Shown: positions 9,228 through 27,244 of the stretch, in pieces
Layout: the number at the start of each line of letters is the position of its first letter
How positions within the stretch are numbered: position 1 is the stretch's first letter
DNA from: a virus
Taxonomy: Duplodnaviria > Caudoviricetes
Virus record (IMG/VR): IMGVR_UViG_3300029288_005873
Coordinates: 377,905 to 441,904 of that record
Length of the DNA: 64,000 nucleotides
Strand: one strand, 5' to 3'
Position numbers and translations under genes: made by a program
Notes under the pieces: generated by a model
What the model was told of the DNA's origin: nothing
Seen by the model: the letters and a program-made list of their open reading frames with translations, nothing else
Databases searched by the model: none

Positions 9228-9260
9228 ATTTTGGGGACTTGGTATAGGATTGCGGGAGGT

Positions 9261-9833
9261 TTACTGACCCAAGGTTCCGTAATTGCTAAAGAATGGTTCC
9301 AATACAAAACCTTGGTTCATATTGGAAAGAAGACCGTCTTCCTGGAGTCCAACAGCTCCAGCCATAAAGTCGCCATCTTCATTCATCTGGAGGACGCCCC
9401 CTGGGGTAAGAGGAAGAAGACGACATGCGCAGTTACCATTAGTACACACCCCAGAACCAGGAAGACCCTCTTCTCTCCATTGACGCAATGTGCGCATTCG
9501 TCCTTGACGGTCACCACATTCCTGACAGGAATTGGGAAACCTGTTACAAAACCAAAGAAAAAGGCGTTCATCTACGGGACCAGATTGTTTTCGACGAATC
9601 ATATCATCCAGGCGGTCACCAGCAGCATTATCATATTTGTTGGCTGCTCCAGAATCGTTTTTCTTTTTGGAAAAAAGTTGCTTCAGATGTTCATATTTTT
9701 TGCGCAACCAAGAAGAAAGTTTCGACCATTCCGCCGCATGTCGGATAAGACAATCGACAAAATCAGCCTCTCGTAACAGACCACGCTTGTCAAATTCATC
9801 TGCAAGACGCATAAGAGCAAATAGCTCGGTCAT
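9261..9833 (-). CDS. Head protein with LxxLAxxLDxxG motif and MuF-like Cys-rich C-terminal motif
   Basis: Start refined to MTELFALMRLADEFDKRGLLREADFVDCLI (ATGA overlap). CQEC..RQG...W...GLPG..C..NCAC.L resembles minor head (MuF/gp7) C-termini. Confidence 0.6.
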   Translation of the reverse strand: MTELFALMRLADEFDKRGLLREADFVDCLIRHAAEWSKLSSWLRKKYEHLKQLFSKKKNDSGAANKYDNAAGDRLDDMIRRKQSGPVDERLFLWFCNRFPNSCQECGDRQGRMRTLRQWREEGLPGSGVCTNGNCACRLLPLTPGGVLQMNEDGDFMAGAVGLQEDGLLSNMNQGFVLEPFFSNYGTLGQ

Positions 9834-11299
9834 CGACCGCCTCCAGGATATCCTGTTGGTATCGAGCATATAGAAAATGGAGAAAGAATAGTATCAATTC
9901 CACTGTCATAGGACATACTGTCAGTGGTATAATGTAAGTCAGACGGAGTTGGCTCAAGCAAGTTCTGTTCAGCATGCGGCTCAATTTCAGCAAGCATGCG
10001 ACGCATTGCGGCAGTATCAACTGGAGGGTGTCTATGAGTATGTGGATCGTGCTGGCATGTTTCCGTAAACCTATCAATCATATGTGGAAAACGATCTTTG
10101 AATCCGAAACTTTTTGCTTCAGCATAAGCAAGGTCACAGGGCCAGCCACTTTCAGTGCGATATCGTGCAACCACACCACCCGTACGATCTGCGCCATGTC
10201 TACAATGTACAAAAGCTGGTACCTCGTGTAGAAATCCAAAAATGTTAGGAGTAAGAACTTCCCAACCCTTATCTTCTGGACGTCCATCAGACAGTAGAGC
10301 ATGGACGTGATGTATACCAAGTTTTCGGCACCAATCAGCAAGCTCAGGCATGTCGTCATTAAGTGTAACGATACGACGTACACCTAATTTATCACGCATT
10401 GCAGCAAGTTGTTCAATATTATCTGGTTGTCTGCCACGATATAGACCATTGGAGACTTTTGCAAAATTCCTTGGGAATTCATGATATGGATCCATGCGTG
10501 CTCTAAGTAATGCTATCGTCGGATCATCTAACATACCATTAGGCTCCAGAAAATTCATTTCCTGCCAACGGGCAAGATCCATATCAAATTCTGGCATTGA
10601 CGGTATGCGCCCAATCGTTCCAATAATATGACCTAGGCATCTAGCAACATCCCTTCGTCGTACAGCAGAAAGGTTATGCTTACGCGCAACATCAAGCGCT
10701 AATACAACTGGTACGCTTCCCTGCCTAAGAATTCTCAATCCGTCGCGAATAGCTCCTGCTACATTTCCTGCTGCAATCTTTGCGGTAAAAGCAAGATCAG
10801 GTTCACCCATTGGAGCATTGGGCATAAATTTTTGCCTAATGCTGTCTAACTGGATGGCAGCATGTACAACATCAGGATACACTTTCCTTAAAGTTTCTCT
10901 AGCCTTAGCCTCTGCTTCAGACTCTCCAAGAAAAGGTGTAGCACCTGGGGAAATTGGACGTTCGGGTCCAATATGTCCACTCTCATGAGCTAAAACCTCA
11001 ACTATTGCGCGTTCAAGCGCGCTAGAAAAATCAGCAAGAGTGGGTTTGGCTCCTGCGGACTGTTCTCGAACCATTTGCTCTATTCGACCTTTGAATAAAT
11101 GAATTTCTTGCGGGTCATGCCCCTTCCCCGACTGGACATGACCGAGTTCTCCCCCACCACCAGAATGGACGATTATTTTACGAACACGAGAAAGTAGTCC
11201 TGGATCCCTCATCTTTATGCGCGACACAGCCTGCTGGACAGCTGGATCCAATGGTTCAATCACAACATCCATGGCACGTTTACTAATGGGGAGTTTCAT
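9830..11299 (-). CDS. Multidomain protein: HExxH metallopeptidase-like + peptidoglycan-binding-like + dual-specificity/tyrosine phosphatase
   Basis: Starts MKLPISKRA. Contains VLAHESGH...EAEA, WQEMNFLEPNGMLDDPT and NFAKVSNGLYRGRQP...VHCRHGADRTG (CX5R). Confidence 0.8.
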   Translation of the reverse strand: MKLPISKRAMDVVIEPLDPAVQQAVSRIKMRDPGLLSRVRKIIVHSGGGGELGHVQSGKGHDPQEIHLFKGRIEQMVREQSAGAKPTLADFSSALERAIVEVLAHESGHIGPERPISPGATPFLGESEAEAKARETLRKVYPDVVHAAIQLDSIRQKFMPNAPMGEPDLAFTAKIAAGNVAGAIRDGLRILRQGSVPVVLALDVARKHNLSAVRRRDVARCLGHIIGTIGRIPSMPEFDMDLARWQEMNFLEPNGMLDDPTIALLRARMDPYHEFPRNFAKVSNGLYRGRQPDNIEQLAAMRDKLGVRRIVTLNDDMPELADWCRKLGIHHVHALLSDGRPEDKGWEVLTPNIFGFLHEVPAFVHCRHGADRTGGVVARYRTESGWPCDLAYAEAKSFGFKDRFPHMIDRFTETCQHDPHTHRHPPVDTAAMRRMLAEIEPHAEQNLLEPTPSDLHYTTDSMSYDSGIDTILSPFSICSIPTGYPGGGR

Positions 11300-13026
11300 A
11301 TTTTTGCCCCGATCGGTGTGCGTTTACGCGCAGGAATCTGATGAAGCATAAGATTTGCTACTTCATCCATTACGCGCTTAACAAAGAATGGATTAAGACC
11401 AGATAAAATATTCTTAACTAGCGATATACTTTGTCCAATAGCGGCAGTCTGTGGCATCTTTTTCTGGCTCATTTGACCCGTGGGAACCCTCAATATCTTT
11501 CCCCTAATGCGCTGCATATATCTTGCTTTGTCCTTATCTGGTACACGGAACATAAGAAAATTGATAATCTTTACAATAGACTCAGCAGTTCTACGAACTG
11601 GATCCTGTGCTCTCTTAGAAATTGGAACAAGCCTAGTGGCTCTACTAGACAAAGGAAGCTCATCATCCGACATCATGTCTAGATCAACACCATCTTCTTT
11701 TGCTTTAATACGCTTCTTTACTGCATCTATAACAGGACGCAAAATTTCCTTCTCCATCTCCCAATCGGACATTGGTCCTGTTTCCCTATTACCAAGCAAT
11801 TCTGTTATTTCTGGATCTAATTCAGTCCGTTGTGCTTTATCGTAGTCGATTACAGTTGGTTCATCGCCCTCAGCATAATCATGATCAGCCAATTTCTTTT
11901 TGATCGGCATAATGGATGTTACTTTTTCCGCCCATCTTTTTCGGATGGGAGCCCCAATTACTGGATGTCTAACCCGTTCCAATTCACGTTTTGTTTGTTC
12001 CCAAGCTGTATTTTCTCGTTTAACATCTTCTGGGGATGCTGTAGTACCATCGGGAAATACCCAACTCGAATCATGTTGTTCCTCTGGATGTTTTGGCCAG
12101 TATTCTTCAATTGTAGTTTCAGACACCAAAAACTCGGGAGCACCAATGAGTAGATCATATCCAACAGGTGAAACACCTTTGACGAAACTGGAAATTACAC
12201 GATTCCTTGCCCGCTCGGCATGTTTGCGCGTTCGATAGAATGATATAGGAATTGTTCCCCACATTAGGGCAAAAGTCCCATGGGTAAGCCAGTTTTCCGG
12301 ACCGTGTGGCATAAGATCTTTGATTTTGATACCGGCTTTTTGGAGAGCACGAATTCCAGCTTCAAAACGGGAAAGTTCTGTTCCGTCAGGAAATTTAACT
12401 ACGGCAGAATCATTCCTCAACATTTCCATTAGTTTAGGAGTTTTGAAGACTTCCATCAGTTCTTCAGGTTTCCACATGGAAGGATCCAAGTGGATCGGCA
12501 AACGTTCCATTGCGGCACGCTTGGAGAATGGCAACAAAGCGGCCTGACGCGATGAAAGTGGAATAGAATCGATTTTCCTCAAAGTCTCATTCAAATCGCG
12601 CTCATGCTCCATCTCATCCTCCAGTATCGCCACAACTATACTGCTGGTGTCTTTATCTGTCTCCTCTGTAACCCGAAGCAACTCACGATAAACTGCTATG
12701 GCGCATTTTTCCGCTTCCAGGTTTTGTTCCAATACTTCAACAGCAGAAAATCCTTCAGGGTCTACGTATCTACAATTAGAATTAGCCGCCCACTTACTCG
12801 GATCACCTATCGGTCTAGCACCAAGTTGAACAAGGCGACTATATATTGCGTCAGCATGCCTCCTCTCATCATTGGCATGTTCAAGTAGTTCACCAACCGC
12901 ATGGGCTGGACCAAGAATAGCCTTTGCCCCAGCCCAATATTGATGGAATGCAAACCACTCATCAACATAAGCTTTACTAAGAAGTTCGACTACCCCAGGC
13001 ATATTACCTTTCCCGCTCATAGCCAT
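11296..13026 (-). CDS. Multidomain protein with N-terminal ferritin-like (bacterioferritin/Dps-like) domain
   Basis: AYVDEWFAFHQYW...EHANDERRHAD...LVQLG...NLEAEKCAIAVY...ILEDEMEHE di-iron motifs, followed by PLSSR/PFSKRA/PISKRA-delimited segments. Confidence 0.8.
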   Translation of the reverse strand: MAMSGKGNMPGVVELLSKAYVDEWFAFHQYWAGAKAILGPAHAVGELLEHANDERRHADAIYSRLVQLGARPIGDPSKWAANSNCRYVDPEGFSAVEVLEQNLEAEKCAIAVYRELLRVTEETDKDTSSIVVAILEDEMEHERDLNETLRKIDSIPLSSRQAALLPFSKRAAMERLPIHLDPSMWKPEELMEVFKTPKLMEMLRNDSAVVKFPDGTELSRFEAGIRALQKAGIKIKDLMPHGPENWLTHGTFALMWGTIPISFYRTRKHAERARNRVISSFVKGVSPVGYDLLIGAPEFLVSETTIEEYWPKHPEEQHDSSWVFPDGTTASPEDVKRENTAWEQTKRELERVRHPVIGAPIRKRWAEKVTSIMPIKKKLADHDYAEGDEPTVIDYDKAQRTELDPEITELLGNRETGPMSDWEMEKEILRPVIDAVKKRIKAKEDGVDLDMMSDDELPLSSRATRLVPISKRAQDPVRRTAESIVKIINFLMFRVPDKDKARYMQRIRGKILRVPTGQMSQKKMPQTAAIGQSISLVKNILSGLNPFFVKRVMDEVANLMLHQIPARKRTPIGAKI

Positions 13027-14152
13027 TGATTATACCGATCATGCGCTGTAGCAACTCCCACACATCAGATAAGGAGGTCCACCAGGTTCGCAGAGTCTGT
13101 TGTTCTTCCGCATCTCCCTTTTCCGAAGCCTTTTGCCATTTTGCCTGAAGTGTTGCGGCAAGTCTGGGTGCCGTGTCTTTCATTAGATAGCGCAGATATG
13201 CACGTGAAGCCTGTATCTCACCTTTCTTGCCAGCATCCTGTAATCCAGATGAAGGACCATACATGCGAGCATACATGTCTTGACCATCATTCATCGCCCA
13301 TGCGATAGCAGCAGGAATAAAAGCTCTTTCATCTTGTAGGACATCAGGTGGCGGAAAAGGCCAACGCAATTCTGTATCAGGTCGTATTTTCTGTTCAGAT
13401 TTAGGCGTAGATTTTGCCGGCGTGCCTGGTTTAGTAGTAGGTGTAACAGAAGACTTTCCTGGAGGGGACCAAGGCATATTGACATAGCCGAGCTGTTCAT
13501 GAACAGTTTTACGTCCAATGGATTCAGACAAGCGACCAAGCTGACCAAGATACTGTCCAAAGTTAATACCTTTAGCCTGCGCAAATTGTTTAGCACGATC
13601 AAGGAGTTGCTGATTTGCACTAAAGAACTTGTTTACCCAATTCTCCTCTGCTTCACTCACAAGCCGTGGATCCGTAAGCACGCGCACAAGAGCTGCGCTA
13701 TCCGCTTCGCCAAGCACCTCAAGAGCTTGAGCTAGAACCGTAAGCCTATGCATCTGTATTCCCTCCTTAATCAGGTCCTGTGCCAATCCCAGGTCAATCG
13801 GTTCTATTACGATGTCCTGGGGCGTTATCTTTACATCATCGATCTTTTTCCAGTTATAGCCGGCTCCCGTTTCATACACACCTGGTGGAATATCAATTAC
13901 AAAAGCAGAATACCCATCACTTGTAATAACCCATTGGTGGTCTTCTCCATCTGGCGCACCGGGGACAGCCTCAACATTTTGTAGATGATCATATATTGTT
14001 TCTATTATAGCATCAGCTACACGGTCACAGATTCCCCCAGTACCAAGTTCTGGGTCGAACCCCTCCTCGTCCAGCTGCCATTCGTCAACAATTTTTTGGG
14101 CTGCGAGAGCAATGTCAGGACGAATTGACTAAAGACGTTGCTGAAGATTCAT
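13004..14152 (-). CDS. Hypothetical protein with in-frame TAG at codon 8 (readthrough or pseudogene)
   Basis: ATG at 14152 overlaps the previous TGA. Reads MNLQQRL*SIRPDIALAAQKIVDEWQLDEEGFDPELGTGGICD..., continuous with the track ORF 13004-13879. Confidence 0.65.
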
Positions 14153-14910
14153 TCTTCTTCCATTTCCTCTGGATTTTCATAACGATATAAATCATCTTCC
14201 AAAGCATGAATTACATCAAACTCCGTAGATCTAAGCCATTCTTTCAGCTTTTGTAGAGAACTTTCCAAACTAGCAAGTAATGGATGATTTGTGGCAGCGG
14301 CAATTTTCGTCGCTTTATCAAAATTACGTACAATATCAATGGCTTCAAACCAAACATTATGTATTAAAGGTCTTGCCGCTTTTATGTATTTGACGACTTC
14401 ATCGTCATCAGAGGCATTTTGTTCTTTATTAGCTTTCTCTTCCATTTTCTCTAAACGAGTGTAGTAATCAGAAGGCAATTCAGTAAGATGATCTTTGGCA
14501 ATTTCCTTAGCAGTTCCAACATCATCTGTGTGTTCAAGTTCAACTTTAACACCTTTTTCCAGTTGTGCGGGATCGAAATCCGAGTCAGGTTTGCCTTCCG
14601 CAAGTCCGCCTGGGATTTTTTCGGATCCACCAATTTCATTCTGGACAATGCCAAGAATTTGTTCCTCTGCTTTCTCACCATCCATTCCAAGGTCTTTTAG
14701 AATGACAACACAGTCACCAATAGCTGCTACGGCCTCCTCGAGTCTGTTTGCAAGATCCTCAGCCCGTAGATCAAGATCTTTATCATTGGGTTCACCTTTT
14801 TGAAAAAGATCAGGACCACCACCTCGTGCGAATTCAAGCATCTTATCGGGCTTCTCCTTGACATCAATTATGGCAATAGCCTTAGCCAAGCTTAGAATCC
14901 TTTTGCTCAT
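14149..14910 (-). CDS. Protein with DUF5661-like domain
   Basis: IPGGLAEGK....FDPAQLEKGVKVELEHTDD...AKEIAKDHLTE...YYTRLEKME. Start refined to MSKRIL (ATGA overlap). Confidence 0.7.
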   Translation of the reverse strand: MSKRILSLAKAIAIIDVKEKPDKMLEFARGGGPDLFQKGEPNDKDLDLRAEDLANRLEEAVAAIGDCVVILKDLGMDGEKAEEQILGIVQNEIGGSEKIPGGLAEGKPDSDFDPAQLEKGVKVELEHTDDVGTAKEIAKDHLTELPSDYYTRLEKMEEKANKEQNASDDDEVVKYIKAARPLIHNVWFEAIDIVRNFDKATKIAAATNHPLLASLESSLQKLKEWLRSTEFDVIHALEDDLYRYENPEEMEEE

Positions 14911-15617: not shown

Positions 15618-15625
15618 GCGCACCC

Positions 15626-15919
15626 CTAGCGCCCGCTGGGGGCGATCGGCTTGCCTGTCAGGGAAACCTTGATAGCTTTCCGCCAGTTGAAAGACGGATC
15701 CCACGACATCTTGATGTGGTCGCCGTTTATGTGGACAACGCCAACGCCCGGCACCTCGAACTCGAGCACGCCCTCGTCCACGTTTCTGATAAAGCCTTGG
15801 AAGTATTCCTTGTTTTGCGCCCAAACCTCGGCGTAGGTGATCGTCTCGGCATCCTCGCCGACAACAACACAGATCTCCTTGCCCACGAAGCGTTTCGCCA
15901 AATACTCAGCCATTCCCAT
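15626..15919 (-). CDS. Small beta-rich hypothetical protein (Sm/Hfq-like size and pattern)
   Basis: 97-aa ORF (GKEICV...GFIRNVDEGVLEFE...HINGDHIK). The fold assignment is a guess. Confidence 0.55.
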   Translation of the reverse strand: MGMAEYLAKRFVGKEICVVVGEDAETITYAEVWAQNKEYFQGFIRNVDEGVLEFEVPGVGVVHINGDHIKMSWDPSFNWRKAIKVSLTGKPIAPSGR

Positions 15920-15938
15920 GTGTCAATCACCCCTACGG

Positions 15939-15956
15939 ATGCTGTATTATTGATAG
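15939..15956 (-). promoter_or_regulatory. Candidate phage promoter CTATCAATAATACAGCAT
   Basis: Near-identical to 9210-9227; lies ~20 nt upstream of the ATG at 15919. Confidence 0.55.
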
Positions 15957-18043
15957 GTTTTGGTCCGTTGCGACAGCGGGAGACTGTCGGCTCTTTTCGA
16001 CAGGGGAAACACCTCCAACGACTGGACGGTGGTCGATTCGGGTTTGGTCCAGACCACCTTGCCCCTATCCGGATCATCAACCATGGAGAAGGTGATCTGC
16101 GAGACATACATATTGCCCTCGGCGTTCCTGATCGCCTGGTCCAGGCTGTCGTATGAGGCGAGCACCCGCCCCCAGTAGTCCACTAGGTAGTAGGGTCCCC
16201 GTTTGGCGCGGAGCTCGGCCAGCATCTTCCTGGTCGACTCCGGCGACCTTTCCCACACGACCGGCTTGTCGCCCTTTTCCATGTACACGAACACATCCCA
16301 CGGATCGTCGTACTCGCTGTGGAACACCCGTGAGGACCACTGGAGATTCTCGGCGTTCCTGACGGCTTTGTCCTTGGTGGCATACCGCGCCACGATGTTG
16401 TCGTCCATGTCGACGACATAGTACCGACCATTTGGATCACTGGGCTCCAGGCTCTCGCCCGACGGAAGGTCTTGCGGTCTCTCCAGACCCTCGGCGGCCA
16501 CAGCCCAGTCCGGGATGTTCTGCGGCAGGATCACGCGCGGCTTGTCCTCGCGCATATGCTTGACGGGATCGTCGTATGTCTCCCAGATCCCTTTCCACAT
16601 GCGCTCATCCAGCGCAGGCTCGCGGAACAGCGGTTTCACCGTCCGCTTCACTTGGTCGGCGCGCCTCGACAGCGGTGGATCGTCCCCGCCCCTTTTCCTG
16701 CGGCCAATGGGGATGTCGGCAAATTTCTCGCCACCGACCTGGATGCGCACCTTGTCGGCTGTCCATTCCAGCTTCTCCGTGAGGTCCGGCAGCTCCGGCT
16801 TGTCATCGCAGGAATAGCACACGGTCATGTGCGGCACCCAGCCATGCTCGGACGGCAGCTCGATGATGTTGCCCACCGCCTCCTCGAGGTCCGCCTGTAG
16901 CGCGCTCAACCCCTTGGCATTCGGCACCACATACACCGGAGTGCCGTCCTTCTCTGGCGTGAACATGCCGGCCCCGGAAACGCTCATCTCCAGCGGCATG
17001 TGCCGCGCACAAACCCTCTCGACCGCCCGCTTGACCGCCGCGAGCGTCTTGTCATCCAGGTCGGCCGCCTTGCCGAGGTACAGCAGGGTCATGTGGAGGA
17101 CATCGGAAAGCTCCTTGTCCTCCACCATCTTGGCTTTGCGCATCTTCTTGGCAATTGCTGGAGGAGCCATAAGTGCAAGCATTGCTCCACTATGTGCGGC
17201 ACTTTTAGACAAAAGCGAGACATAAGATGCTCGCACCAGTGTATCTGGCGCCCATATGATTTCCATATCTGGCGGCAAAACAAGCTGGTCAAGCGGAGCA
17301 AAAACAGTCCTCTGATCCTCTAGCTCCGATTCGAATTGCAGATGTAACTGCGACTCGGACACCATAAATCGACCATTCAACTCACCCTTGTTTTCTGGCC
17401 AATGTTTAAGGCTAACGGGAATTCCCTCTAGTTTTTCATCAAAACTCATTCCCCTTCTTGGATTCCATGAACGAAAATTACCACCTTCGTCATATTCATA
17501 AGGTTCTTTCTGCTTGCCACCTTGAAGTACAATAACAGTCTTTGCTGCACGTTTTGAGATAGGCAATCCGTCAGAAGCCTTTTTTTCGCTACTAGCCTCC
17601 ATTACCATCCATTTATTTCCACCACCTGCGCGAAAAAGTTTATAGATTCCCTTCTCTTTCTTACCTTTTAGACGGAAAACGATTTTAGTTCTACTTGCCT
17701 CAATTTCCTCATATGTTCCCGAATCATGGATTTCTACAGTACCAGCACCATAGCCTGCTGCGATCTCTCCTTTGAACTTTAGATATTCAACTGGATGGTC
17801 TTCAGTTTTTATAGCTAGAAGCTTTTCCTTACCCTTGGGTAGTTTGTGCTTAGGGATACTCCATGACGACAATGTGCCATTATCGTTTTCCAATCGCAAA
17901 TCATAATGATCGCGAGCTTTTTTCGCATGATGTAGCTGAATGACAAAACGATGCCTATTTCCACCCTTCTCCTTTTTACCCTTGGGCTCAGATGTTTCGT
18001 CAAATTCTCTTTTACTTTTATACTTCGCAAGTGGATCGGTCAT
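15947..18043 (-). CDS. Multidomain protein: LigD 3'-phosphoesterase + 2H phosphoesterase + duplicated C-terminal domain
   Basis: KYKSKREFDETSEP...FVIQLH.A...HYDLRLE..G.L.SWSIPK...LAIKTEDHP..Y..F.GEI...YGAG.V.I.DSGTY (LigD PE domain). LHMTL...PHMTV (two HxT motifs). Confidence 0.85.
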   Translation of the reverse strand: MTDPLAKYKSKREFDETSEPKGKKEKGGNRHRFVIQLHHAKKARDHYDLRLENDNGTLSSWSIPKHKLPKGKEKLLAIKTEDHPVEYLKFKGEIAAGYGAGTVEIHDSGTYEEIEASRTKIVFRLKGKKEKGIYKLFRAGGGNKWMVMEASSEKKASDGLPISKRAAKTVIVLQGGKQKEPYEYDEGGNFRSWNPRRGMSFDEKLEGIPVSLKHWPENKGELNGRFMVSESQLHLQFESELEDQRTVFAPLDQLVLPPDMEIIWAPDTLVRASYVSLLSKSAAHSGAMLALMAPPAIAKKMRKAKMVEDKELSDVLHMTLLYLGKAADLDDKTLAAVKRAVERVCARHMPLEMSVSGAGMFTPEKDGTPVYVVPNAKGLSALQADLEEAVGNIIELPSEHGWVPHMTVCYSCDDKPELPDLTEKLEWTADKVRIQVGGEKFADIPIGRRKRGGDDPPLSRRADQVKRTVKPLFREPALDERMWKGIWETYDDPVKHMREDKPRVILPQNIPDWAVAAEGLERPQDLPSGESLEPSDPNGRYYVVDMDDNIVARYATKDKAVRNAENLQWSSRVFHSEYDDPWDVFVYMEKGDKPVVWERSPESTRKMLAELRAKRGPYYLVDYWGRVLASYDSLDQAIRNAEGNMYVSQITFSMVDDPDRGKVVWTKPESTTVQSLEVFPLSKRADSLPLSQRTKTYQ

Positions 18044-21000
18044 TTGCCTTCCTCCAGCCGTTTCTTGAGGATTTTGTCAAATTCTTCAAGCTGTTCGGGC
18101 ATGCCGAGCCTTCTTAATGTTTTACGCCAAATAGAGAACAGCTTGACATCGTTTTCTTTATTATCAGCCAAACGTCCGATTGCTCCCATCACACCGGCCA
18201 TCTCATCTTCCTTATCGGGAAGATCTTTACGCAGGTCAAGAATACGCTGTTTCGGACGCCATCCTGTATGGCTTGGCATCATTAGCGCTTTTACCAACAC
18301 AGGAGATCCTTCTGTCAAAGTTGTTGAGGAATCAAAAATTATGCGAGATTTATCATGCGTATCCATCTCGTCCAAATGGCTTGCCTTACCTTGCGCAAGT
18401 TTTTGTCCATCCTCTGGCAGTATTGGAGTCATCATCTGGATATTATTAGGCGTTCCTGAAAAATCCCAAATTCCCTCCACAAGAGCTAAGTATAGATTTT
18501 TGCTCTGCTTATCATATGAGCTACTCTTGCCTTCTTCAGCACGCATTGTCCTTTTGCCAAGTGGAGAGTTTTCTCCATAATGTAAACCACATTCGGCAAA
18601 CAAAACATCTCCAGAACGCTTTACGACTGAAAGGAAATAACATCTAGGAGGAACCCTATCTTGGTCAATATTGGTTAGATATGGGCGCAGATCTACAAAA
18701 CCATTTTCTTGCTGAAGAACTTTTGAGAACCATGTCTGTATAATACTTGATACTATTTGATCAGCCCCATTGCGTGGCATTGATCTAACTTCGAGGTGGT
18801 CCTTGATCTCCCCAGTTTTCTTATCGATAACTTTTCTTAGTACAGGCATGCGTTTTGTGAAAAATCCCACAAGATGTAGTGGATGTATATATGACCATTC
18901 TAAAACAGCATCATAGAGTAGAGATTGTAGTCTTGATGTGCGATTCCCCTTTATTCCACCAGTGCGTTCCGCATGCTCAAGTTTTCTGCGATAAAACTCC
19001 TGCCGCAAAGACGATGACAGTTCCATGTAGTAGAGTTTCTCATTTTGATCATTCAGAAACTCATTTGTGCCAGTCGTTTGTTCGATACCAGTCTGCTGCT
19101 TTGTATCCTCAACTCTGTTTTTGGCTGTCTCAGGATCAGCTGGTTCAAACGATGCTGGCTGTTCCCATCTAGTAGTTCTCGGAGGATCAATAAATAGACC
19201 ACCCATATGACTTCCACCAGGATCCATTTTTCCTTTCCCAAAAGCCTGTCTTGGTGTAAATTTGGCATCATCGAATGGGCAATGGAAAGGCACATCCCAC
19301 AACCACTTTGGTGGAGTTCTAGCAGCTGTTTCCGATACAGCACCCTCTTTACCACCATCTTCAGCTTTCTGTCCTTGTGGATTCTCAACAATACCATAAA
19401 CACTGGCAAGTTTTCGCCGCGCCTCATTTCCTTCAGCCGTCTGCCAGAATGGACTTTCCCAATCCACGAAAGTCAACGGAATTCGTTGACCTGGACAATT
19501 TTCATTTATACAAGACATGTGCTGACTTGGTATATCCAGCATTCTACGACGATTGCTTATTTCAACCCTGAGTGTATTTCTTTCTGCCTCAAGAGCTTCA
19601 ACCTGGTACCCGTCGGACCTTAATGTATCAGAAAGACTAACTATTCTTGCTTTCAGTTCCCTATTGCTCGGATCGAGCGCAAGCTCTTTTTCAGCTTCTG
19701 TTTTTTTAGCCTTGGTTTCATCCAATGTCTGATTCGCGTTTGCAACACCCATTTCCTTAATCCGTAGTTCCTTCTCCTTAGTATCTAGAATCTCAGCGCA
19801 TGTTGGACATTTGAATTTTGGATGCCTACGGGACAAACCTTCTTCCTGCGTCTCATGTATAGATGTCTGCGAAAGAATAGGTGGAGCAGTCTTTATATCG
19901 CGCCTATTGCGACAATAACTACATACGGGTTTTCTATTTGCCGAAAAACCTTGACGCTTTCCAGCATCTGCCATCATGCGCCTATTTAATGCGTCATATA
20001 TATATCCATCCAAACTACCAGCTGGTGTTTTGGTGGCTAGATAAAATTGTAGGATTTTGGCAACGTGCCAGTTAACCAATGCAATAAAGGCTCTTCCAAC
20101 ATCGGTTCCATCAAGATCCTCATTGCGTATTTTTTTATATTCCTCAGAAGTCAATAATCCAAAGGGCGCATCTCCTACACTTCTGCGCCGTTTGTTGATA
20201 TCCCACCAACGCTTGCCAACCGCCAGGACTATTTTCGGCAAAATAAATTCTTGTATCATTCCCTTTTTGGCAGGATTGGAAACCATCTCTTTCAGAGCTT
20301 CCCAAGTTTCGCGTTTCTGAAATAAACGTCTAATAGAAGCACCATCGGACAAATCCTCAGCATCAAAAGGAAATCCCGGAGGAGTGGCGGTTACCTCGAC
20401 CCACGTACCGTTGGTTGAGGGTGGATTTAGTTCAACTGACAGATTCCATTCATTTGATTCCTGTTTGCGATGAACTTTTGTCCAAAGATCAGGAGTAGAT
20501 TTTTCTACTGGTAGAACTGGAGGCGGAACAGGAGCCTGTGGGATTTCTTTTTCGTCATCCTCTTCAAACTCCTGACGTTCAAACTCAAGAAGGCGTCTTG
20601 CCACTTCTTCATCACTCATACGCCCCCCACCAACTTGATCAGCCAATTTCCAAAGCGCAGCTAGTTTGCGCATTGCGGCATTTTCATCCAACATTGCCTC
20701 TGACAAAGTTGGTGCCCCATCAAGCCGTCGCGCTAAAATATCCGCCAACGATTCCGCATCGTCAGGTCCGACCGCCGTGAAAAGGTCACCATCACGCTCC
20801 ACCGGCATTCCCGTCCATTCTGCTCCAGCCTCTAGCATATCGGGACGAATTTCCGACCAACCGGTTATTTGACGACCTTTAACTAGATTTGCCTTTGCAG
20901 CCAAAAGAGGAGCATGACAAATAAGCGCCACAGGTTTTTCACTCTCGACAAAATCACGAAGTAGTTGCTGAGCTATCAGATCGTCCGAAAAACCAATCAT

Positions 21001-22173
21001 GCCTTTGCCACCAACTACAAATAGTCCATCAAATTTTGTAGGCTTAACATCTTTGATTTCAATATCAATCTCAATAGTGGTCCCTTGCGCGCCAACAGCC
21101 TTAGTACCACTAGTTGCCACAGATACATCCATACCCCTCTCTGAAAACACTTTGCGCGGAATAGAATATTCTGTCTCATAAAACTCATTTGGAGCCACAA
21201 GCATAAGAACATGTTTGTGCGCATCTGATGCGCTCTGTTCAACGGTCTCAAGCTGCCCTTCGAATGGTGTCATAGTTTCCATGAATGCCCTCATGGCCTT
21301 CTCCGTAAGTCCAAGTTTCTTTGCGATAGCGTCAGCTGTCATCATTGAACCAGACATGTTGAGGATGCGGTTCCTGTATGTGGATATAAGCATATCTGCC
21401 TGCTGTCTTGCTTCCGCCAACTCGTTTGGGAAGAAAATATTACTCATGGACTTTTTGAATGCGGAGGTTGGACCATATAGCCGAAGCATTGCATCCATTG
21501 ATGATTCCCTAGCCTCGCGCTCGGCAGGCTGTTTTCGGTAACTCTCTACTCCCTTCTCCACTTGAATGTGTTCGCCAATAGCCTCTGGATAAAAAGCCAT
21601 CTGGACAAAGTGCGTAAGCTCATGCGCAGCAGATTCCACAACAAACTGTCGCCACGCCTCCTCATTGCCTTTTCCAGATGCCAATGCGTTGAGTTCTTCT
21701 GCTGATGCAAAGAACACATAGATGTTCGATTCAGGGAGAGCTTGCCCCCTTATGCCAAAGCTCTCTGGTCGGAATGACAAGAAAACATTTGGCTTTTTGT
21801 ACAAAAAGCGCTCCGGTCCAACTGGATCGAGCACAAGTTTACCTACTGGTGTGCGTAGCGCCAAAGATTGAAAAACTCGCTTCTCAAGCTGGTTTACAGC
21901 ATGTTCAATCCACGCCTCGCTCAGTTGCGGATCCATCCCTTTCTTTATCTGCTCCGACAATTTACTGCTTACAATATCCTCGATATGGTCTACCACTTTA
22001 CGGACATTTGGCACAAGTTTCCTAGCAGCCGCACGCAAAGTGGCAATGTTCGCCTGTGGACCTGAAGTGTTTGACAAGGCTGTACGCTCAGCCTCATGTA
22101 AACTAGAAACCAGCTTGCTTTTCATTTCTTGCGGCATGGATTCCCATGTTTGCCTTGTGAGCCGAACCATCAA
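18040..22173 (-). CDS. Multidomain protein: HExxH metallopeptidase-like + DJ-1/PfpI + Zn-binding domain paralogous to 57969-59969
   Basis: AAHELTH...EREA. VLMLVAPNEFYETE...FDGLFVVGG...VALICHAP...GRQITG (DJ-1 nucleophile elbow). Several CxxC pairs in the C-terminal half. Confidence 0.8.
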   Translation of the reverse strand: MMVRLTRQTWESMPQEMKSKLVSSLHEAERTALSNTSGPQANIATLRAAARKLVPNVRKVVDHIEDIVSSKLSEQIKKGMDPQLSEAWIEHAVNQLEKRVFQSLALRTPVGKLVLDPVGPERFLYKKPNVFLSFRPESFGIRGQALPESNIYVFFASAEELNALASGKGNEEAWRQFVVESAAHELTHFVQMAFYPEAIGEHIQVEKGVESYRKQPAEREARESSMDAMLRLYGPTSAFKKSMSNIFFPNELAEARQQADMLISTYRNRILNMSGSMMTADAIAKKLGLTEKAMRAFMETMTPFEGQLETVEQSASDAHKHVLMLVAPNEFYETEYSIPRKVFSERGMDVSVATSGTKAVGAQGTTIEIDIEIKDVKPTKFDGLFVVGGKGMIGFSDDLIAQQLLRDFVESEKPVALICHAPLLAAKANLVKGRQITGWSEIRPDMLEAGAEWTGMPVERDGDLFTAVGPDDAESLADILARRLDGAPTLSEAMLDENAAMRKLAALWKLADQVGGGRMSDEEVARRLLEFERQEFEEDDEKEIPQAPVPPPVLPVEKSTPDLWTKVHRKQESNEWNLSVELNPPSTNGTWVEVTATPPGFPFDAEDLSDGASIRRLFQKRETWEALKEMVSNPAKKGMIQEFILPKIVLAVGKRWWDINKRRRSVGDAPFGLLTSEEYKKIRNEDLDGTDVGRAFIALVNWHVAKILQFYLATKTPAGSLDGYIYDALNRRMMADAGKRQGFSANRKPVCSYCRNRRDIKTAPPILSQTSIHETQEEGLSRRHPKFKCPTCAEILDTKEKELRIKEMGVANANQTLDETKAKKTEAEKELALDPSNRELKARIVSLSDTLRSDGYQVEALEAERNTLRVEISNRRRMLDIPSQHMSCINENCPGQRIPLTFVDWESPFWQTAEGNEARRKLASVYGIVENPQGQKAEDGGKEGAVSETAARTPPKWLWDVPFHCPFDDAKFTPRQAFGKGKMDPGGSHMGGLFIDPPRTTRWEQPASFEPADPETAKNRVEDTKQQTGIEQTTGTNEFLNDQNEKLYYMELSSSLRQEFYRRKLEHAERTGGIKGNRTSRLQSLLYDAVLEWSYIHPLHLVGFFTKRMPVLRKVIDKKTGEIKDHLEVRSMPRNGADQIVSSIIQTWFSKVLQQENGFVDLRPYLTNIDQDRVPPRCYFLSVVKRSGDVLFAECGLHYGENSPLGKRTMRAEEGKSSSYDKQSKNLYLALVEGIWDFSGTPNNIQMMTPILPEDGQKLAQGKASHLDEMDTHDKSRIIFDSSTTLTEGSPVLVKALMMPSHTGWRPKQRILDLRKDLPDKEDEMAGVMGAIGRLADNKENDVKLFSIWRKTLRRLGMPEQLEEFDKILKKRLEEGK

Positions 22174-25100
22174 TCGTTTCCTCTTTTGATTTTACCAGCG
22201 TCTCTGAAAAGCGCCAGTCGTAAAGAAGCAACAGCTATGCCCGGCTGTCCCTGCGCCGAAGACTGGTATGGCATCGGTGTAATTGCCCCACCGTCCCCAA
22301 ATGGTCCAGTATCCGAGTCTTTGCCGCCAAAATTGTTATTCCCATAGTCGTCGTCCGTGTTCTGAGACAACGGCTTCTTCACCTTCCCCCAGGTTTCGCC
22401 CAACGACCCCGGAACACGCAAACTACCCTTGTTGTGAAGCGTACTTACATCGGTCCGCATTCCTTTACCCTTTACCGTACTGGTAGTCGCACCCTCAAAA
22501 TCTTCATTAAGTTTATCAAGTAGTGCGCGCAATTCTTTACGCAAACCATCTATCCCAACTTTCTCGCCTAACTTAAATTCAATATGTAGACCCGTGCCAC
22601 CGCTCTGATATATCTTGGACGGAACACCATACTTCTCTTTAATGGCGGATGAAGCTTTTCTAGCATACTCTTTTGCTTTATCTAAGGAATATCCTCCATG
22701 GAGATCTAGGTCGACAAAACCAATATCAGTTTTGGTCCCAAAGACCTCATGTATTGCCAACATTCGTCGTTTCACCCAATACCAATAGTTGTTTGGTGAA
22801 TCCGAGTTTTTCTCTTCATCATTTTCAATTACGATAGATTTGTCGTCATGATTACGCTTTAGGATTTTCTCATTTTTGCCAACCCCAAGATAGATCAGCA
22901 CAGGAACGCTTTTAATACGAGACATTATCTGTTTACGAACAATAGGCTTGGCATAATGGTCATATATCTGTCCACGCGTCAACTTTACACCATCCTTGTC
23001 GATCAAAACCTCGCCGCGCTTCTTCTCATCCAAGTCCCCATCGTCAGCCTTGTTTTCGAACCGGCAAAAACGAATTACCACATAGCGCCTGTTTGGTCCA
23101 AACTTATGCTCAAGAGACCTAGCAACGTGTTTACCGAAGCTTTTTTCGATACGTGGTAAACTCATTGTCTCTTTTGAAAGGATCTTGATACGACAAATAT
23201 CTCCACCAGAATAGGTAACAGCCCTTACAACCTCATCCACTGCCACTGGCATATCAGCTAATCGTATAGTCCTTTCCATCTTGCCAGACTTGATATCCTG
23301 GGCAAAATTACCTGGGAATGCCAATGTGCCTGTATTTTCCGAAGCTTCCTTGCGCAAATGATCAATTCTCCGTGAAAAACGTAGCCAAGCATGTTCGCCT
23401 ATCATTTTCTTCAGCTTTTCTTTCGGGATCCCAGCACGCTCCGCCACCTCAAGAAAAACTGTGCGCCGCAAATCATCTTCGGGTACTTGCCTACCTTCGC
23501 TTTCTAGAATATCCCTAACCTGCTTTAGCATATGCTTATATTTCCCGAACAAGTTCGGAGGCATACGCGACTCGACATCCACCTGGGTACGACCAACTGG
23601 TTCATGCGTTTTGCGCACGTCAGTATTCAGAACAATAGGCATACCCCACATCTCAGATGGAAGAAACCATCCAAGTTCCATGGGATCGTCCACTGTCCAT
23701 AGCATCAGTTTTGGTTGTGGTTGACTCCTATCTATACGCATAAGTGTCAGACCAACCGACCTTAGGTCATCAGGGCGAACAATATCATAATTCAACCAGC
23801 GCTTAACTAGATCAATTATACCTGATGCACGTTCTACATAGTCCGGACGTTCTTTTGAACTGATAGGATGTGTTTCCGCCAGTGCCATTTTGAGAGCATG
23901 AGTACGGCAAACCTTTTTGCCGCCAAGGAAAGCAGCTATACGATCAGCAACTTTTCCAGGAAAGCCTCCCGTTCCACCATTGGATGGAATTCCAGCAAGC
24001 ATGGCATTCGCGATCCCGGCAAGGTCGGGTTCAGTTTTTTTCAGCGCTTCTAATGCCTGCCTATATCTTGAACTCTGTATGTAGTGTAAATTTCCTTTTC
24101 CAAAAGGTTTCCTGTTGAGGAGAAACTGTTGGACGCGACCTACACCACTTGCATTTGCAATAACAATGAGCTGATATGGATTAAAGGCACCAGGAGCCGA
24201 CGTGTCATATCCAGATTTTCGCAGCATATCAACTACAGCGTTGATCCTGGATGTAAAATCGGCCATCGAAGCCTTCTCCAATAGATTTGACAACGCCTTA
24301 TTCTTTCGTATACTGGCAGAATTAAATTGTCGTCTAAATTTCTGAAAAGCTGTTGGAGCCATCTGCGATAAATAAGCTTGTGTCAATGAACTCAAGGCAA
24401 CATTATCTGTTATGTATTGTTCATATACACGCTCAAGTATACGTTTGAAAGTCTCCGAATCGGTGTCAAAACCAAGATTGCGCAAAACAGAAGTATCTAT
24501 AACCCTGCCCACAAACCCATCGCCCCTTTTCTCTACAACCATATCAGGACGCCTGATGAAAGTCTTTTCCATGCGCCTCACTGGCGAAAGACCTTGGATA
24601 TCCTTGGGATTAACTGGAACGGTTTTCCAGATATTTACCTTCTTCAGTTTTCCAATAGTATCTAACCAGATTTTTGAAAGTTCCTTCATCTCCTCTGGAG
24701 ACATGGTAGTAGCTGCCTGCGCACCAGGCATACGGGAAAGTTTAGATAGCAAATATGGTCCATGTACCTGCGTAGGTCCAAAAGATGTGCCAGCATCTCC
24801 GACCGTATCGGTCCTCCCTCCAGATTCAAGTTTGGACATAATCCTAAACATTTTGTCGCCATCTACGCCACCAATATTACCGATACCTCCAACTGTTTGT
24901 GGTTTTTTATCAACAGCTCCCTCAAGTGCCGTCACAAGTTCGTTCGGATCGGGAATACCCGCAAACGCAAACATAGCTTTACGACTAATTTCTGCTGGCT
25001 TGAACTCATCAATATGTTCTACATGGAATTCATGCATGGTTGCATCCTTTGGCTTTTTATCATCCCGAAATCTTAGAAACTTTTGGTGGCGAAGACCTCC

Positions 25101-25976
25101 AGGAACACGTTCCTGGAAACCTATCTCAATGACAAAAAGTCCCTTTTCTAGATGCTTCTTGATCTCAGCTTCATTTTCTTCGGAAAAATTGTCTATCTCG
25201 CTGATTGCATACAATTTACCTTTATGGTATTGACCAAACTGCGCCATCAGCTTTCCAGTTTTACTTCTTGTTGTTCCGTAAACAACATAGTCATCAGAGT
25301 CGTGTTTTCCAGCGCCGCCTTTGTATTTCCACATTGTATCTGCAGGTTTTGGCTCATTCTCACCTTTAGGTTTCCACTGGTATTTTGCACCCTTAAGTTT
25401 AAGTACGATGCCTTCGCCTCCTTTCTTAACCGCACTATTCATTACATTCTGCCATTCGGAAAATGGATACTGTTCGGTAAGCTTCACTATATCTGACACT
25501 TTCACGGCAGATTCCAAAAGTTTACGCCGATCGGAAAAAGGTTTACCTGCTACATTATTTCCCTTGTGCCACAGGATGTCATACAAATACAACCTCATCT
25601 CTCCAGGTAAACTTTTAGCCTTCTCCACAGCCTTATCTGCCGAACTCCCAGCAAGTGATGTAACCTTTGTCACATCCTGCTTACCCTTGTCCCAATATGT
25701 CAACTCACCTTCGACCAACGTGCCATCGGGTAGATTTTCCAGCTCTTTGACGATTGATGGAAAGTTTCCAGTGACATCTTCACCGCTGCGACTGTATATA
25801 CTGATTTTTCCACCAGTTTTTATAACTTGTGCCTTCCAACCATCGAGCTTTGGTTCTACGACAATATCTTCACGACGATGGTCCTTCAGGACCTCGTCGG
25901 CATCGTCAACCTCAGTCAGACGCATCAGAGTCACTGGCACGAGTTCAGCGGCATGCCGAGAAATGGGCAGATACAT
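22170..25976 (-). CDS. Multidomain protein: ATP-dependent DNA ligase + lysozyme/SLT-like + ASCH + LigD-type primase-polymerase
   Basis: Ligase: EPKLDG, EGEL, YLYDIL, EGIVLK, WKYK, LRHQKFLRFRDDK. Lysozyme-like: LESGG...GDAGTSFGPTQ. ASCH: LAF...AQDIKSGKMERTIR. AEP: LTRGQIYDHY...FVDLD...SGGTGLHI...SLRVPGSL. Confidence 0.85.
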   Translation of the reverse strand: MYLPISRHAAELVPVTLMRLTEVDDADEVLKDHRREDIVVEPKLDGWKAQVIKTGGKISIYSRSGEDVTGNFPSIVKELENLPDGTLVEGELTYWDKGKQDVTKVTSLAGSSADKAVEKAKSLPGEMRLYLYDILWHKGNNVAGKPFSDRRKLLESAVKVSDIVKLTEQYPFSEWQNVMNSAVKKGGEGIVLKLKGAKYQWKPKGENEPKPADTMWKYKGGAGKHDSDDYVVYGTTRSKTGKLMAQFGQYHKGKLYAISEIDNFSEENEAEIKKHLEKGLFVIEIGFQERVPGGLRHQKFLRFRDDKKPKDATMHEFHVEHIDEFKPAEISRKAMFAFAGIPDPNELVTALEGAVDKKPQTVGGIGNIGGVDGDKMFRIMSKLESGGRTDTVGDAGTSFGPTQVHGPYLLSKLSRMPGAQAATTMSPEEMKELSKIWLDTIGKLKKVNIWKTVPVNPKDIQGLSPVRRMEKTFIRRPDMVVEKRGDGFVGRVIDTSVLRNLGFDTDSETFKRILERVYEQYITDNVALSSLTQAYLSQMAPTAFQKFRRQFNSASIRKNKALSNLLEKASMADFTSRINAVVDMLRKSGYDTSAPGAFNPYQLIVIANASGVGRVQQFLLNRKPFGKGNLHYIQSSRYRQALEALKKTEPDLAGIANAMLAGIPSNGGTGGFPGKVADRIAAFLGGKKVCRTHALKMALAETHPISSKERPDYVERASGIIDLVKRWLNYDIVRPDDLRSVGLTLMRIDRSQPQPKLMLWTVDDPMELGWFLPSEMWGMPIVLNTDVRKTHEPVGRTQVDVESRMPPNLFGKYKHMLKQVRDILESEGRQVPEDDLRRTVFLEVAERAGIPKEKLKKMIGEHAWLRFSRRIDHLRKEASENTGTLAFPGNFAQDIKSGKMERTIRLADMPVAVDEVVRAVTYSGGDICRIKILSKETMSLPRIEKSFGKHVARSLEHKFGPNRRYVVIRFCRFENKADDGDLDEKKRGEVLIDKDGVKLTRGQIYDHYAKPIVRKQIMSRIKSVPVLIYLGVGKNEKILKRNHDDKSIVIENDEEKNSDSPNNYWYWVKRRMLAIHEVFGTKTDIGFVDLDLHGGYSLDKAKEYARKASSAIKEKYGVPSKIYQSGGTGLHIEFKLGEKVGIDGLRKELRALLDKLNEDFEGATTSTVKGKGMRTDVSTLHNKGSLRVPGSLGETWGKVKKPLSQNTDDDYGNNNFGGKDSDTGPFGDGGAITPMPYQSSAQGQPGIAVASLRLALFRDAGKIKRGND

Positions 25977-27244
25977 TATTCTTCCTCCTCGTCCATCTCC
26001 ATCTCTTCGTCCTCATATTCTCGCAACATGGCTTCAGCTGCAGCATCAAGCTTCTCCTCGTCACTCATATCTGCGATAGCCAAAGTTATGATTCCAGCTC
26101 GTCGAAACGCAGACGATTTGCCTAGATCTTTCAACTTCCGTGCCTGCTCAAGCGGTTCTTGGCGCATCGACAATGGGAAAGGTACCGTTTCATCTGTGCG
26201 CTCGAGGATTACCATGTTTGGGTCAGAAGGATCTTCTTCCCCCTCCCAGAAAACATTTCCCATAAGATTACGCAGCTTTATACTGGAAGTTCCGCCAGTT
26301 GGTCTAAACTTCTTCCCTTGTCTATGTAATATCTTTCCTTTGCCACTAGATGCAGCACCAAGCTGGCTTTTAGGAAGGCGCAATTTATCACCCTCTGGTG
26401 ATACTTCCCACTCCCACTCCCATCCATGTTTACCACTGGTACCAAAACGTTCTTTCCTCCATCCTGGAAGTGGCTCCGCAACCGGCTTAACTGGTGGAGC
26501 TTCCTCTGGTTTTGCTGGCTCTACAGGAGCCACAGGCTCTTCAATTTTTGGCTCAATAGGCTTTTCTTCTGGCTCGATCGGTTTAGTTTCTGGAGCAGAA
26601 ACAGTAGGAGGTTCCACAGGAGTTTCATCTGGACGCTTTTTAACATTTGTCAGTGGAATAACCTCTGGTTTCAGCGACTCATTCAAAGCCTCCTCTAAAG
26701 AACTTTCCTCTCCCTTTCCCATTGGGGGCGGTGGAATAGGGGGTTTCTCTCCTTTATCCTCTGGCAATAGCGGCGAGACAACAGGTTTGCCCTTCTCTGG
26801 TTCCTTTTTGGGCGTCAGCTTTAGCAGCTGAGCTGTCATTTTTGCACGTTGTTCATCATAGTCAGAAAGAATATCGGCCTCAGTCTTTCCAAGACTAGTG
26901 ATCAAAGGTGTAGCTTTTCCTCGCCATTCCGAAAGTTCATGTTGCGAAAGCATTTCCTCAAGCTCATCGTTGGCAGATTGGAGTTCTTCGATTCTGGCAT
27001 TAATGGCTTCCTGGGCTTTTTTAGCAGCGCCATACATTGTACGATACTCGCTAAAAAGGGCTTTCCTAGCCCAGCCACTTAGCCTGGATAGAATGTTCCT
27101 CCAAAGTCCAGCCTCTTTGATAAGACCGCGATCGGCTACAGCTTCTAGTAAACCATCCATGATAGCTGCATCGTCATATAGACCTGCGTCATCCAACATC
27201 TGCGCCATCGCCGCAATTTTGGCCAAAACGGTTTCCCTACTCAT
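25976..27244 (-). CDS. Head-region protein with N-terminal LxxLAxxLDxxG motif and Pro/Glu-rich linker
   Basis: IAAMAQMLDDAGLYDDAAIMDGLL followed by LIKEAG. Confidence 0.7.
   Translation of the reverse strand: MSRETVLAKIAAMAQMLDDAGLYDDAAIMDGLLEAVADRGLIKEAGLWRNILSRLSGWARKALFSEYRTMYGAAKKAQEAINARIEELQSANDELEEMLSQHELSEWRGKATPLITSLGKTEADILSDYDEQRAKMTAQLLKLTPKKEPEKGKPVVSPLLPEDKGEKPPIPPPPMGKGEESSLEEALNESLKPEVIPLTNVKKRPDETPVEPPTVSAPETKPIEPEEKPIEPKIEEPVAPVEPAKPEEAPPVKPVAEPLPGWRKERFGTSGKHGWEWEWEVSPEGDKLRLPKSQLGAASSGKGKILHRQGKKFRPTGGTSSIKLRNLMGNVFWEGEEDPSDPNMVILERTDETVPFPLSMRQEPLEQARKLKDLGKSSAFRRAGIITLAIADMSDEEKLDAAAEAMLREYEDEEMEMDEEEE

Follow-up and report, generated by a model that had tools for sequence, protein, structure and literature searches.

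The window examined here, a 64,000-nucleotide stretch of DNA, is the terminal 64 kb of the 441,904-bp virus record IMGVR_UViG_3300029288_005873 in IMG/VR. All genes in the window lie on the minus strand, neighbouring open reading frames (ORFs) overlap by a few bases, and the genes situated between the portal and the prohead protease are translationally coupled and form one block. A short peptide, typified by PISKRA, recurs at the termini and domain borders of large proteins encoded in this block. A sequence-only reading of the window had interpreted the peptide as part of a cargo-loading and proteolytic-release system, in which enzyme polyproteins are packaged in the phage head and freed there by the prohead protease. 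Our analysis identifies the peptide as a lineage-specific short linear motif that is selected at the protein level, and establishes that in a head-morphogenesis operon it stands at both the N- and the C-terminal borders of modules that can be swapped independently. The modules tagged in this manner comprise DNA ligase, LigD phosphoesterase, 2H phosphoesterase, topoisomerase IB (TopoIB), ASCH, Dps-like ferritin and PTP phosphatase domains together with several domains lacking an assignment. The clade is one of huge phages with a capsid related to the phage G capsid.

The motif follows the consensus Φ-[P/Φ]-[L/I/F]-S-[K/x]-R-[A], in which the Ser and Arg are invariant. The complete genome (602 ORFs, 142,147 amino acids (aa)) contains 15-16 strong copies, of the form Φ-P-[ILF]-S-x-R-[A], that are confined to seven proteins, five of them encoded between portal and protease in the window and two at a second locus. 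Matches to the strict pattern P[ILFV]S[KR]RA number eight, of which six fall in the 489-, 576- and 698-aa proteins of the window and two in a 1216-aa ASCH-TopoIB protein of the second locus. A profile built from the motif copies was scanned against the genome, with shuffled proteomes serving as the control. Results demonstrated 15 sites at 20-25 bits, with the next best site at 16.9 bits and the shuffled proteomes at 11.7-17.7 bits; a sixteenth site is formed by the extreme end of a 351-aa protein. Within the window, strong copies begin at residue 4 of the 489-aa protein, residues 156, 166, 458 and 468 of the 576-aa protein, residues 161, 457, 680 and 689 of the 698-aa protein, residue 4 of the 1268-aa protein and residue 357 of the 422-aa protein, all of them positions at which the sequence-only reading had placed the motif. 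That reading had also noticed no copy in the replication genes, and the genome-wide scan returned none from them. Motif discovery without a supplied pattern recovered the same peptide. When 6-mers of the cargo proteins were clustered blind by BLOSUM similarity, it came first, and a reduced-alphabet 6-mer count of the whole genome placed it at the top of the non-cysteine words (9 observed against 0.51 expected). A literature search with the peptide strings produced irrelevant matches only.

The 16 copies between them draw on every synonymous codon of Pro, Ser, Arg and Ala, and because the synonymous codons vary so freely, selection acts on the peptide and not on the DNA or RNA. A DNA-level signal (promoter, ribosome-binding site or recombination site) was rejected for the same reason, since every codon position varies synonymously. 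The N-terminal PVSIRT of the portal was likewise rejected as a motif copy, as the portals of relatives display a different conserved motif, xLR[IVT][ST]PK.

The distribution of the copies within the proteins follows the domain structure. The 576-aa protein consists of a Dps-like ferritin domain (1.4e-19 in Pfam; 3e-31 against 2vzb and Dps-like chains), a module referred to here as X and a C-terminal helical domain (Cdom), which are linked by two tandem motif pairs. The 698-aa protein contains a LigD 3'-phosphoesterase (PE) domain at residues 36-138, an insert of ~110 aa, a 2H phosphoesterase domain at residues 294-431 and a module without assignment, and carries one decayed copy in addition to its four strong ones. 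In the 489-aa protein the N-terminal motif is followed by an unassigned domain, a dual-specificity/tyrosine phosphatase domain (residues 276-416, Pfam) and a conserved C-terminal tail, ..PFSI(C/R)SIPxxxxGGGR. The 1268-aa protein has an ATP-dependent DNA ligase domain at residues 23-206 and a weak LigD primase-polymerase match at residues 1083-1169, and the 1377-aa protein has a DJ-1/PfpI domain at residues 320-477 (7e-36). Motif copies stand 2-27 residues outside the Pfam domain edges. The last residue of the domain and the first of the motif behind it are 154 and 156 for ferritin, 138 and 161 for LigD-PE, and 431 and 457 for 2H. No Pfam match was obtained for module X, Cdom, the 110-aa insert, the C-terminal module of the 698-aa protein, the flanks of the 1216-aa protein or residues 335-1080 of the 1268-aa protein.

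To evaluate the structural context of the motif, the 576-aa protein was modelled with AlphaFold2 from a 13-row alignment (mean predicted local distance difference test (pLDDT) score 77, in a 568-aa numbering). The model has three folded parts, and the only long segments with a pLDDT below 50, residues 153-170 and 450-466, are the two tandem pairs. The motif pairs are thus predicted to occupy flexible linkers; a position inside folded domains, which the sequence-only reading had named as refuting its interpretation, was not found. The coordinates of the motif copies and of the surrounding genes are collected in Table 1.

Table 1 Motif copies and genes of the head block, with the 1216-aa protein of the second locus. 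Positions refer to the window unless marked as genome positions.
Feature	Position	Strand	Remarks
1289-aa protease-scaffold fusion	4468-8337	-	
Two small conserved proteins	8601-9869	-	
489-aa tyrosine/dual-specificity phosphatase protein	9830-11299	-	
PISKRA	11273..11290	-	residues 4-9 of 489-aa protein
576-aa ferritin-like protein	11296-13026	-	
Tandem pair PLSSRA-trlv-PISKRA	11608..11655	-	residues 458-473, module X/Cdom border
Tandem pair PLSSRQ-aall-PFSKRA	12514..12561	-	residues 156-171, ferritin/module X border
Linker sequence carrying tandem motif pair, DELPLSSRATRLVPISKRAQD			
Three smaller genes	between 13004 and 15824	-	
698-aa protein, LigD 3'-phosphoesterase + 2H phosphoesterase	15947-18043	-	
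C-terminal tandem pair PLSKRA-ds-l-PLSQRT	15962..16006	-	residues 680-694 of 698
PLSRRA	16658..16675	-	residues 457-462 of 698-aa protein, past 2H domain
LLSKSA, decayed copy	17198..17215	-	residues 277-282, directly ahead of 2H domain
PISKRA	17546..17563	-	residues 161-166 of 698-aa protein, past LigD-PE domain
1377-aa protein, DJ-1/PfpI	18040-22173	-	no motif copy
1268-aa protein, ATP-dependent DNA ligase + weak LigD primase-polymerase match	22170-25976	-	
EISRKA, decayed copy	24975..24992	-	residues 329-334 of 1268-aa protein, past ligase
PISRHA	25950..25967	-	residues 4-9 of 1268-aa protein
422-aa Pro/Glu-rich protein	25976-27244	-	one motif copy
PLSMRQ	26159-26176	-	residue 357 of 422-aa protein; kept in relative L076
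Small acidic protein	27237-27611	-	head block
Portal with intein (Hint + LAGLIDADG)	27614-30775	-	upstream limit of cargo block
Large terminase	30788-32617	-	head block
1216-aa ASCH-topoisomerase IB protein	genome 254.5-258.2 kb		three motif copies

Related genomes were used to follow the motif and the modules separately. A scan with the protease domain recovered 68 related loci at 44-80% identity, and queries with the portal and the 698-aa protein added more; a viral-contig search with the 576-aa protein returned no locus. The closest subclade has the motif, mostly relaxed to Φ-Φ-S-K-R-A. Loci of this subclade contain 25 copies of [ILFVM]SKR[AS] against 0.85 expected, and database homologues contain 51 against 0.15 expected. 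The head blocks of relatives hold the same enzyme repertoire in other fusion orders. Module X (residues 166-474 of the 576-aa protein) follows the ferritin domain here and, behind the counterpart of the PLSRRA copy, the 2H domain in the closest relative, L073, and its alignment to L073 (E 2e-21) is bounded by the motif at both ends. Ahead of its 2H domain L073 has an adjacent motif pair, LFSKRIGSVPLSKMA, where the present genome has PISKRA, the 110-aa insert and LLSKSA, and its counterpart of the 698-aa protein terminates in ..PLSKRTETYQ. Cdom is a stand-alone ORF of 108-130 aa in nine relatives, each beginning with the motif (in L004 a 127-aa ORF that begins with a tandem pair); ORFs of relatives begin MFYLSKRA and similar. 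Database homologues include proteins in which Cdom is fused to the phosphatase protein with a motif copy at the joint, and others in which ferritin, X, a further module Y and Cdom stand in varied orders with a copy at every junction. A 953-aa homologue reads MIMLSKRM-TopoIB-MLSKRA-2H-FISKRA-phosphatase, and in an 801-aa homologue a CCA-adding enzyme is flanked by MVSLSKRA and LLSRRA, with FPLSKRA at the C-terminus. The earlier claim that the motif lies at enzyme-module borders in the head module is therefore borne out both by the Pfam edges and by the swapped and split modules of relatives.

Conservation extends to the individual copies. The 489-aa protein has 47 homologues on independent contigs (40-77% identity), and ~33 of the 47 begin M-x(0-5)-[PFLIY][LIF]SKRA followed by a conserved VVIEPLDPAV. 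The ligase proteins of relatives begin MAWPSLSRRAS and MFPLSIRLAS. Among the weaker instances listed in the sequence-only reading, LLSKSA ahead of the 2H domain aligns with VPLSKMA of the closest relative, and EISRKA past the ligase aligns with FQLSKRA (L078) and FKISKRA (L082), so that both can be kept as decayed copies of good ones, while HPISSK is not conserved. Among relatives at greater distance (protease identity below 58%) the motif is absent upstream of the protease; the sole similar string, an 'MISKR[AS]' close to the beginning of a head protein encoded downstream, was found at five loci. The Cdom and PTP homologues of these distant relatives are small proteins without the motif, which is confined to the subclade with large fusions. 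This restriction speaks for a fusion-related role, and hence for cleavage.

The second locus (genome 252695-258185), which lies outside the window, encodes a SET-domain protein, the 1216-aa protein and the 351-aa protein, which ends in PLSKRVTIPISSRSK. In the 1216-aa protein the TopoIB core at residues 435-633 is flanked by copies at residues 404 and 660. Also at this locus is a paralogue, 53% identical, of the protein whose gene stands directly upstream of the capsid gene, a slot that corresponds to the decoration protein position in phage G. Because the second locus adjoins a paralogue of a capsid neighbour, we consider it a head-linked cargo locus.

The candidate protease is contained in the 4468..8337 product. 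Its prohead protease domain occupies residues ~45-250, and the other ~1000 residues are coiled-coil, acidic, repetitive and scaffold-like. The first ~290 residues match the head maturation protease family phrog_18299 (4.8e-12), and the fusion is 34% identical to phage G gp19. A sequence search of the PDB with the protease domain found no match, and a fold search alone succeeded. With a model built from 27 sequences (pLDDT 79), VIA-align returned the varicella-zoster virus (VZV) protease 1vzv at Z 10.2 (root-mean-square deviation (rmsd) 2.4, 113 aa) and T4 gp21 (5jbl_A) at Z 10.1 (rmsd 3.0, 128 aa), its top rows being filled by herpes proteases; the best Foldseek match was 5jbl (E 3e-3). On the strength of this model the N-terminal domain is assigned the gp21/herpes-assemblin prohead protease fold, as the sequence-only reading had anticipated. 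H135 (..DH..) and S186 (..VSMGT..) are invariant in the 27 sequences (49-80% identity) and are the putative catalytic residues. The domain further contains an inserted Cys cluster, CFEC..x10..CPC, at residues 196-212 (window 7700-7760), in which C196, C199 and C210 are invariant in 27 relatives. This cluster is probably a zinc ribbon; we know of no such zinc ribbon in gp21 or herpes proteases.

In the mechanism that we favour, the modules would co-assemble into the prohead, and cleavage at the motif would separate fused modules and trim off terminal tags during head maturation. The likely enzyme would be the scaffold-fused protease of gp21/assemblin fold, which has an invariant His and Ser and is encoded in the operon of the motif proteins. 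The cut may fall within [L/I]-S-x-R↓A, with a hydrophobic P4, a small P3, a free P2, a charged P1 and a small P1'. The sequence-only reading had proposed K/R-x-A sites, with the cut after Ala; by analogy, the S-x-R↓A register is plausibly the better choice, because its layout matches the rule of SPN3US gp245 with the charge reversed. The same peptide would also serve as an address for module loading, and the scaffold-fused protease might bind its substrates via the motif and thereby carry them in. Repair and protection enzymes would in this way accompany the DNA as a ready-made kit. We give this account, in which the motif is a recognition and cleavage site that also marks cargo, about an even chance of being correct, and consider the earlier interpretation of cargo loading and proteolytic release to be partly supported.

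Several observations weigh against this mechanism. A cut at the terminal copies would free only 3-10 residues, yet these copies are conserved, and cleavage alone is insufficient to account for them. Their conservation points to a role of the motif as a recognition handle or tag, and not as a separator alone, and the motif is probably a loading address as well. The description of the large proteins as punctuated by the motif holds for the 576-, 698- and 1216-aa proteins; it fails for the 1377-aa DJ-1 protein, in which the profile scan detected zero copies, and for the 1268-aa protein, whose N-terminal copy is the only strong one, its internal sites being decayed and its interior junctions left untagged. 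The junction between DJ-1 and PE in L073 also lacks the motif. The genome scan located no copy in the protease-scaffold fusion or in the capsid protein. A prohead protease normally digests its own scaffold, and for that reason the motif-free scaffold argues against a link between motif and protease. The looser pattern ΦSxR is not enriched in the scaffold either (~2 sites against ~1.6 expected), and a possible copy at the protease-scaffold junction (AVSKIHA; AISKKA in L006) was rejected, as it is not conserved among 58 aligned fusions. The conserved DJ-1/PfpI domain within the cargo constitutes an alternative candidate peptidase. Finally, cultured phages and the phages of GenBank have no homologue of these proteins, and phage G has none of the 489-aa protein or of the ferritin domain. 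Among the virion proteins of phage G, proteomics records ferritin-like and phosphatase proteins (PMC12484599). As a cultured model phage G was rejected: no motif copy was found in its head genes, and the listed proteins are not detectable orthologues.

The motif-free scaffold and capsid protein would be expected if the motif were not a general site of the protease, and they fit a different explanation, in which the motif is an uncut docking or cargo-loading peptide that binds a common prohead receptor such as the scaffold, the inner face of the capsid or the portal. The multi-module proteins would then remain intact, with several tags providing avidity, in the manner of encapsulin peptides or the tail of the HK97 protease. 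The retention of terminal copies in single-module proteins, behind a variable prefix of 0-5 residues, fits such a peptide, as does the occurrence of copies at N- and C-termini alike and the position of the Dps-like ferritin domain directly ahead of a tag. A single tag would suffice for docking, yet in the 576-, 698- and 1216-aa proteins almost no junction is without a tag, and the tag is often a tandem pair. The motif moreover tracks the fused-polyprotein subclade, as the motif-free small Cdom and PTP homologues of distant relatives indicate; its succession of hydrophobic, small, any, Arg and small residues resembles a protease subsite pattern; and the N-terminal extension of the capsid protein is found in relatives with and without the motif. 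We therefore regard docking without cleavage as unlikely, although worth serious consideration.

Cleavage by another peptidase, either the DJ-1/PfpI-type domain of the 1377-aa protein or a host protease acting in the cytoplasm, would account for a scaffold and capsid protein devoid of the motif, these being usual substrates of a prohead protease. The proteins would in that case be late-expressed 'polyvalent' enzymes, with no requirement for packaging. The DJ-1/PfpI domain (7e-36) has a Cys-His 'ICH' elbow and is conserved in the operon of several relatives, and polyvalent proteins with peptidase domains of their own are documented (PMC5512222). The genes are, on the other hand, translationally coupled within the portal-to-protease block, and the second motif locus adjoins the 53%-identical paralogue of the capsid-neighbour protein. 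A zincin-like peptidase, the usual polyvalent hub, was not detected in Pfam scans. Most DJ-1/PfpI members, furthermore, are not known to be endopeptidases. We judge processing by another peptidase to be improbable.

Encapsulins employ short terminal peptides to route enzymes, including ferritin-like and peroxidase cargo, into a shell of HK97 fold. A short terminal peptide on enzymes that include a ferritin-like protein is also present here, and an encapsulin-style loading tag, with no cut site, would let each repair or protection enzyme dock to the inner capsid or the scaffold; shell binding in this phage is hypothetical. If that were true, the head of a 442-kb phage would double as a protein nanocompartment, providing a living link between phage capsids and encapsulins and a portable enzyme-loading code. 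The present genome differs in having a true tailed-phage capsid (a phage G gp27 homologue) with portal, terminase and protease, in the sequence of its motif and in having internal tags as well. It is not an encapsulin system, although the arrangement of ferritin plus tag sustains the analogy, and a loading tag of strictly encapsulin type seems to us quite improbable. Least convincing is some other linker role. The motif could be modified (e.g. by Ser phosphorylation), contact DNA or cap the conserved fold that follows it, and may have been inherited along with shuffled modules. The invariant Ser and Arg are in favour of such a role, as is the conserved sequence directly downstream in several modules (..RA-xx-VVIEPLDPAV; ..RA-AMERLPIxxDPxMW), with which the motif could form a longer N-terminal element. 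Against it, the folds bordered by the motif are unrelated to one another (ferritin, TopoIB, 2H, ligase, CCA-adding enzyme), so that it does not belong to any single domain; disorder is predicted for the motif itself; and its C-terminal copies have nothing downstream. We hold such a role to be very unlikely.

Comparison with characterized head-processing systems places the preferred recognition-and-cleavage mechanism in context. The internal proteins IPI-III and Alt of T4 carry a capsid targeting sequence (CTS) and are cleaved by gp21 (PMC9026906, PMC3012670). The present proteins resemble them in bearing a short common N-terminal peptide on several head-module proteins (MKLPISKRA, MYLPISRHA), in the shared prohead protease fold and in the proposal that one tag both targets and is removed. 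They differ in the residue rule, which is L/I-x-E in T4 and Φ-[LIF]-S-x-R-A, with no conserved Glu, here. The tag of the present system also occurs at C-termini and between fused domains, and the candidate cargo consists of large multi-enzyme chains. The proteases phiKZ gp175 and SPN3US gp245 cut after S/A/G-x-E (PMC10052503, PMC5694885), and the rule measured for gp245 (PMC10052503) is V-A-x-E↓S, read from V at P4 to Ser at P1'. The subsite layout proposed above for the present motif would be the same, with Arg in place of Glu at P1. SPN3US has many processed head proteins, and its capsid protein, portal and protease are substrates, whereas the capsid protein, scaffold-protease and portal of the present phage lack the motif; its substrates also shed long propeptides and are not enzyme polyproteins.

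Polyvalent proteins, as described by Iyer, Burroughs, Anand, de Souza and Aravind in 2017 (PMC5512222), are predicted to be packaged and delivered with the DNA. Shared with them are the combination of unrelated enzymatic domains in one polypeptide, the setting in a phage with portal and terminase and the extensive mosaicism. Their description in PMC5512222 includes no conserved border peptide, and the word 'linker' is absent from the paper. The domain set of the present proteins is one of DNA/RNA repair and protection; Pfam scans revealed neither the zincin-like metallopeptidase nor other polyvalent hub domains, and large segments remained without a domain match. By analogy, the architecture appears to belong with the polyvalent proteins, and the logic resembles T4 CTS/gp21 and phiKZ/SPN3US processing, with a different residue rule and different substrates.

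If the motif is indeed a loading and cutting signal, it offers a readable code for head cargo across a clade of uncultured huge phages. The cargo would amount to a near-complete end-joining and nucleic-acid repair set together with a DNA-protecting ferritin, which suggests that very large genomes bring along a repair crew of their own. Head processing of the T4/phiKZ kind would be extended to a basic P1 rule and to enzyme polyproteins, and a mechanism would be added to the concept of polyvalent proteins. The motif would explain how modules are reshuffled between proteins without functional loss, and with its 6-10 residues it is a simple candidate tag for packaging foreign enzymes into phage capsids.

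Additional features of the head genes were recorded. The major capsid protein is encoded just beyond the window (genome 372770-373795) and matches the major head protein family phrog_2522 (3e-75) and phage G gp27 (6wkk, E 3e-93). Relative to gp27 it has an N-terminal extension of ~45 residues that is kept in distant relatives and is without the SKRA motif. The portal intein spans residues ~150-550, and portal lengths in relatives run from 987 to 1428 aa, indicating that intein content differs between them. The gene at 13004-14152 (minus strand) has an in-frame TAG at codon 8 (window 14129-14152; MNLQQRL*SIRP..) and is otherwise intact over ~380 codons. The closest relative has Leu at the TAG position (MNLRQRLLVLRP, 374 aa), and the TAG could reflect an error in sequencing, a recent nonsense mutation or suppression.

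Two further shared peptides were encountered in this genome. Several head-module proteins encoded downstream of the protease (window 3-1898 and genome 374729-379802) carry a distinct N-terminal amphipathic tag, ..S-x-V-M-x-E-F-x-K-I-A-x-E-x-G, which is also present in relatives L005, L010, L014 and L025 and is kept clade-wide, including in relatives without the SKRA motif; it may represent a second addressing signal. At genome 168-215 kb, eight small proteins have a common C-terminal tag, ..DPGMGxxY[RK][YH]CPKCEP*, examples being those encoded at genome 168435-169127, 194702-195346 and 201569-202982. This tag is the most over-represented word of the proteome, with 8 observed against ~0 expected.

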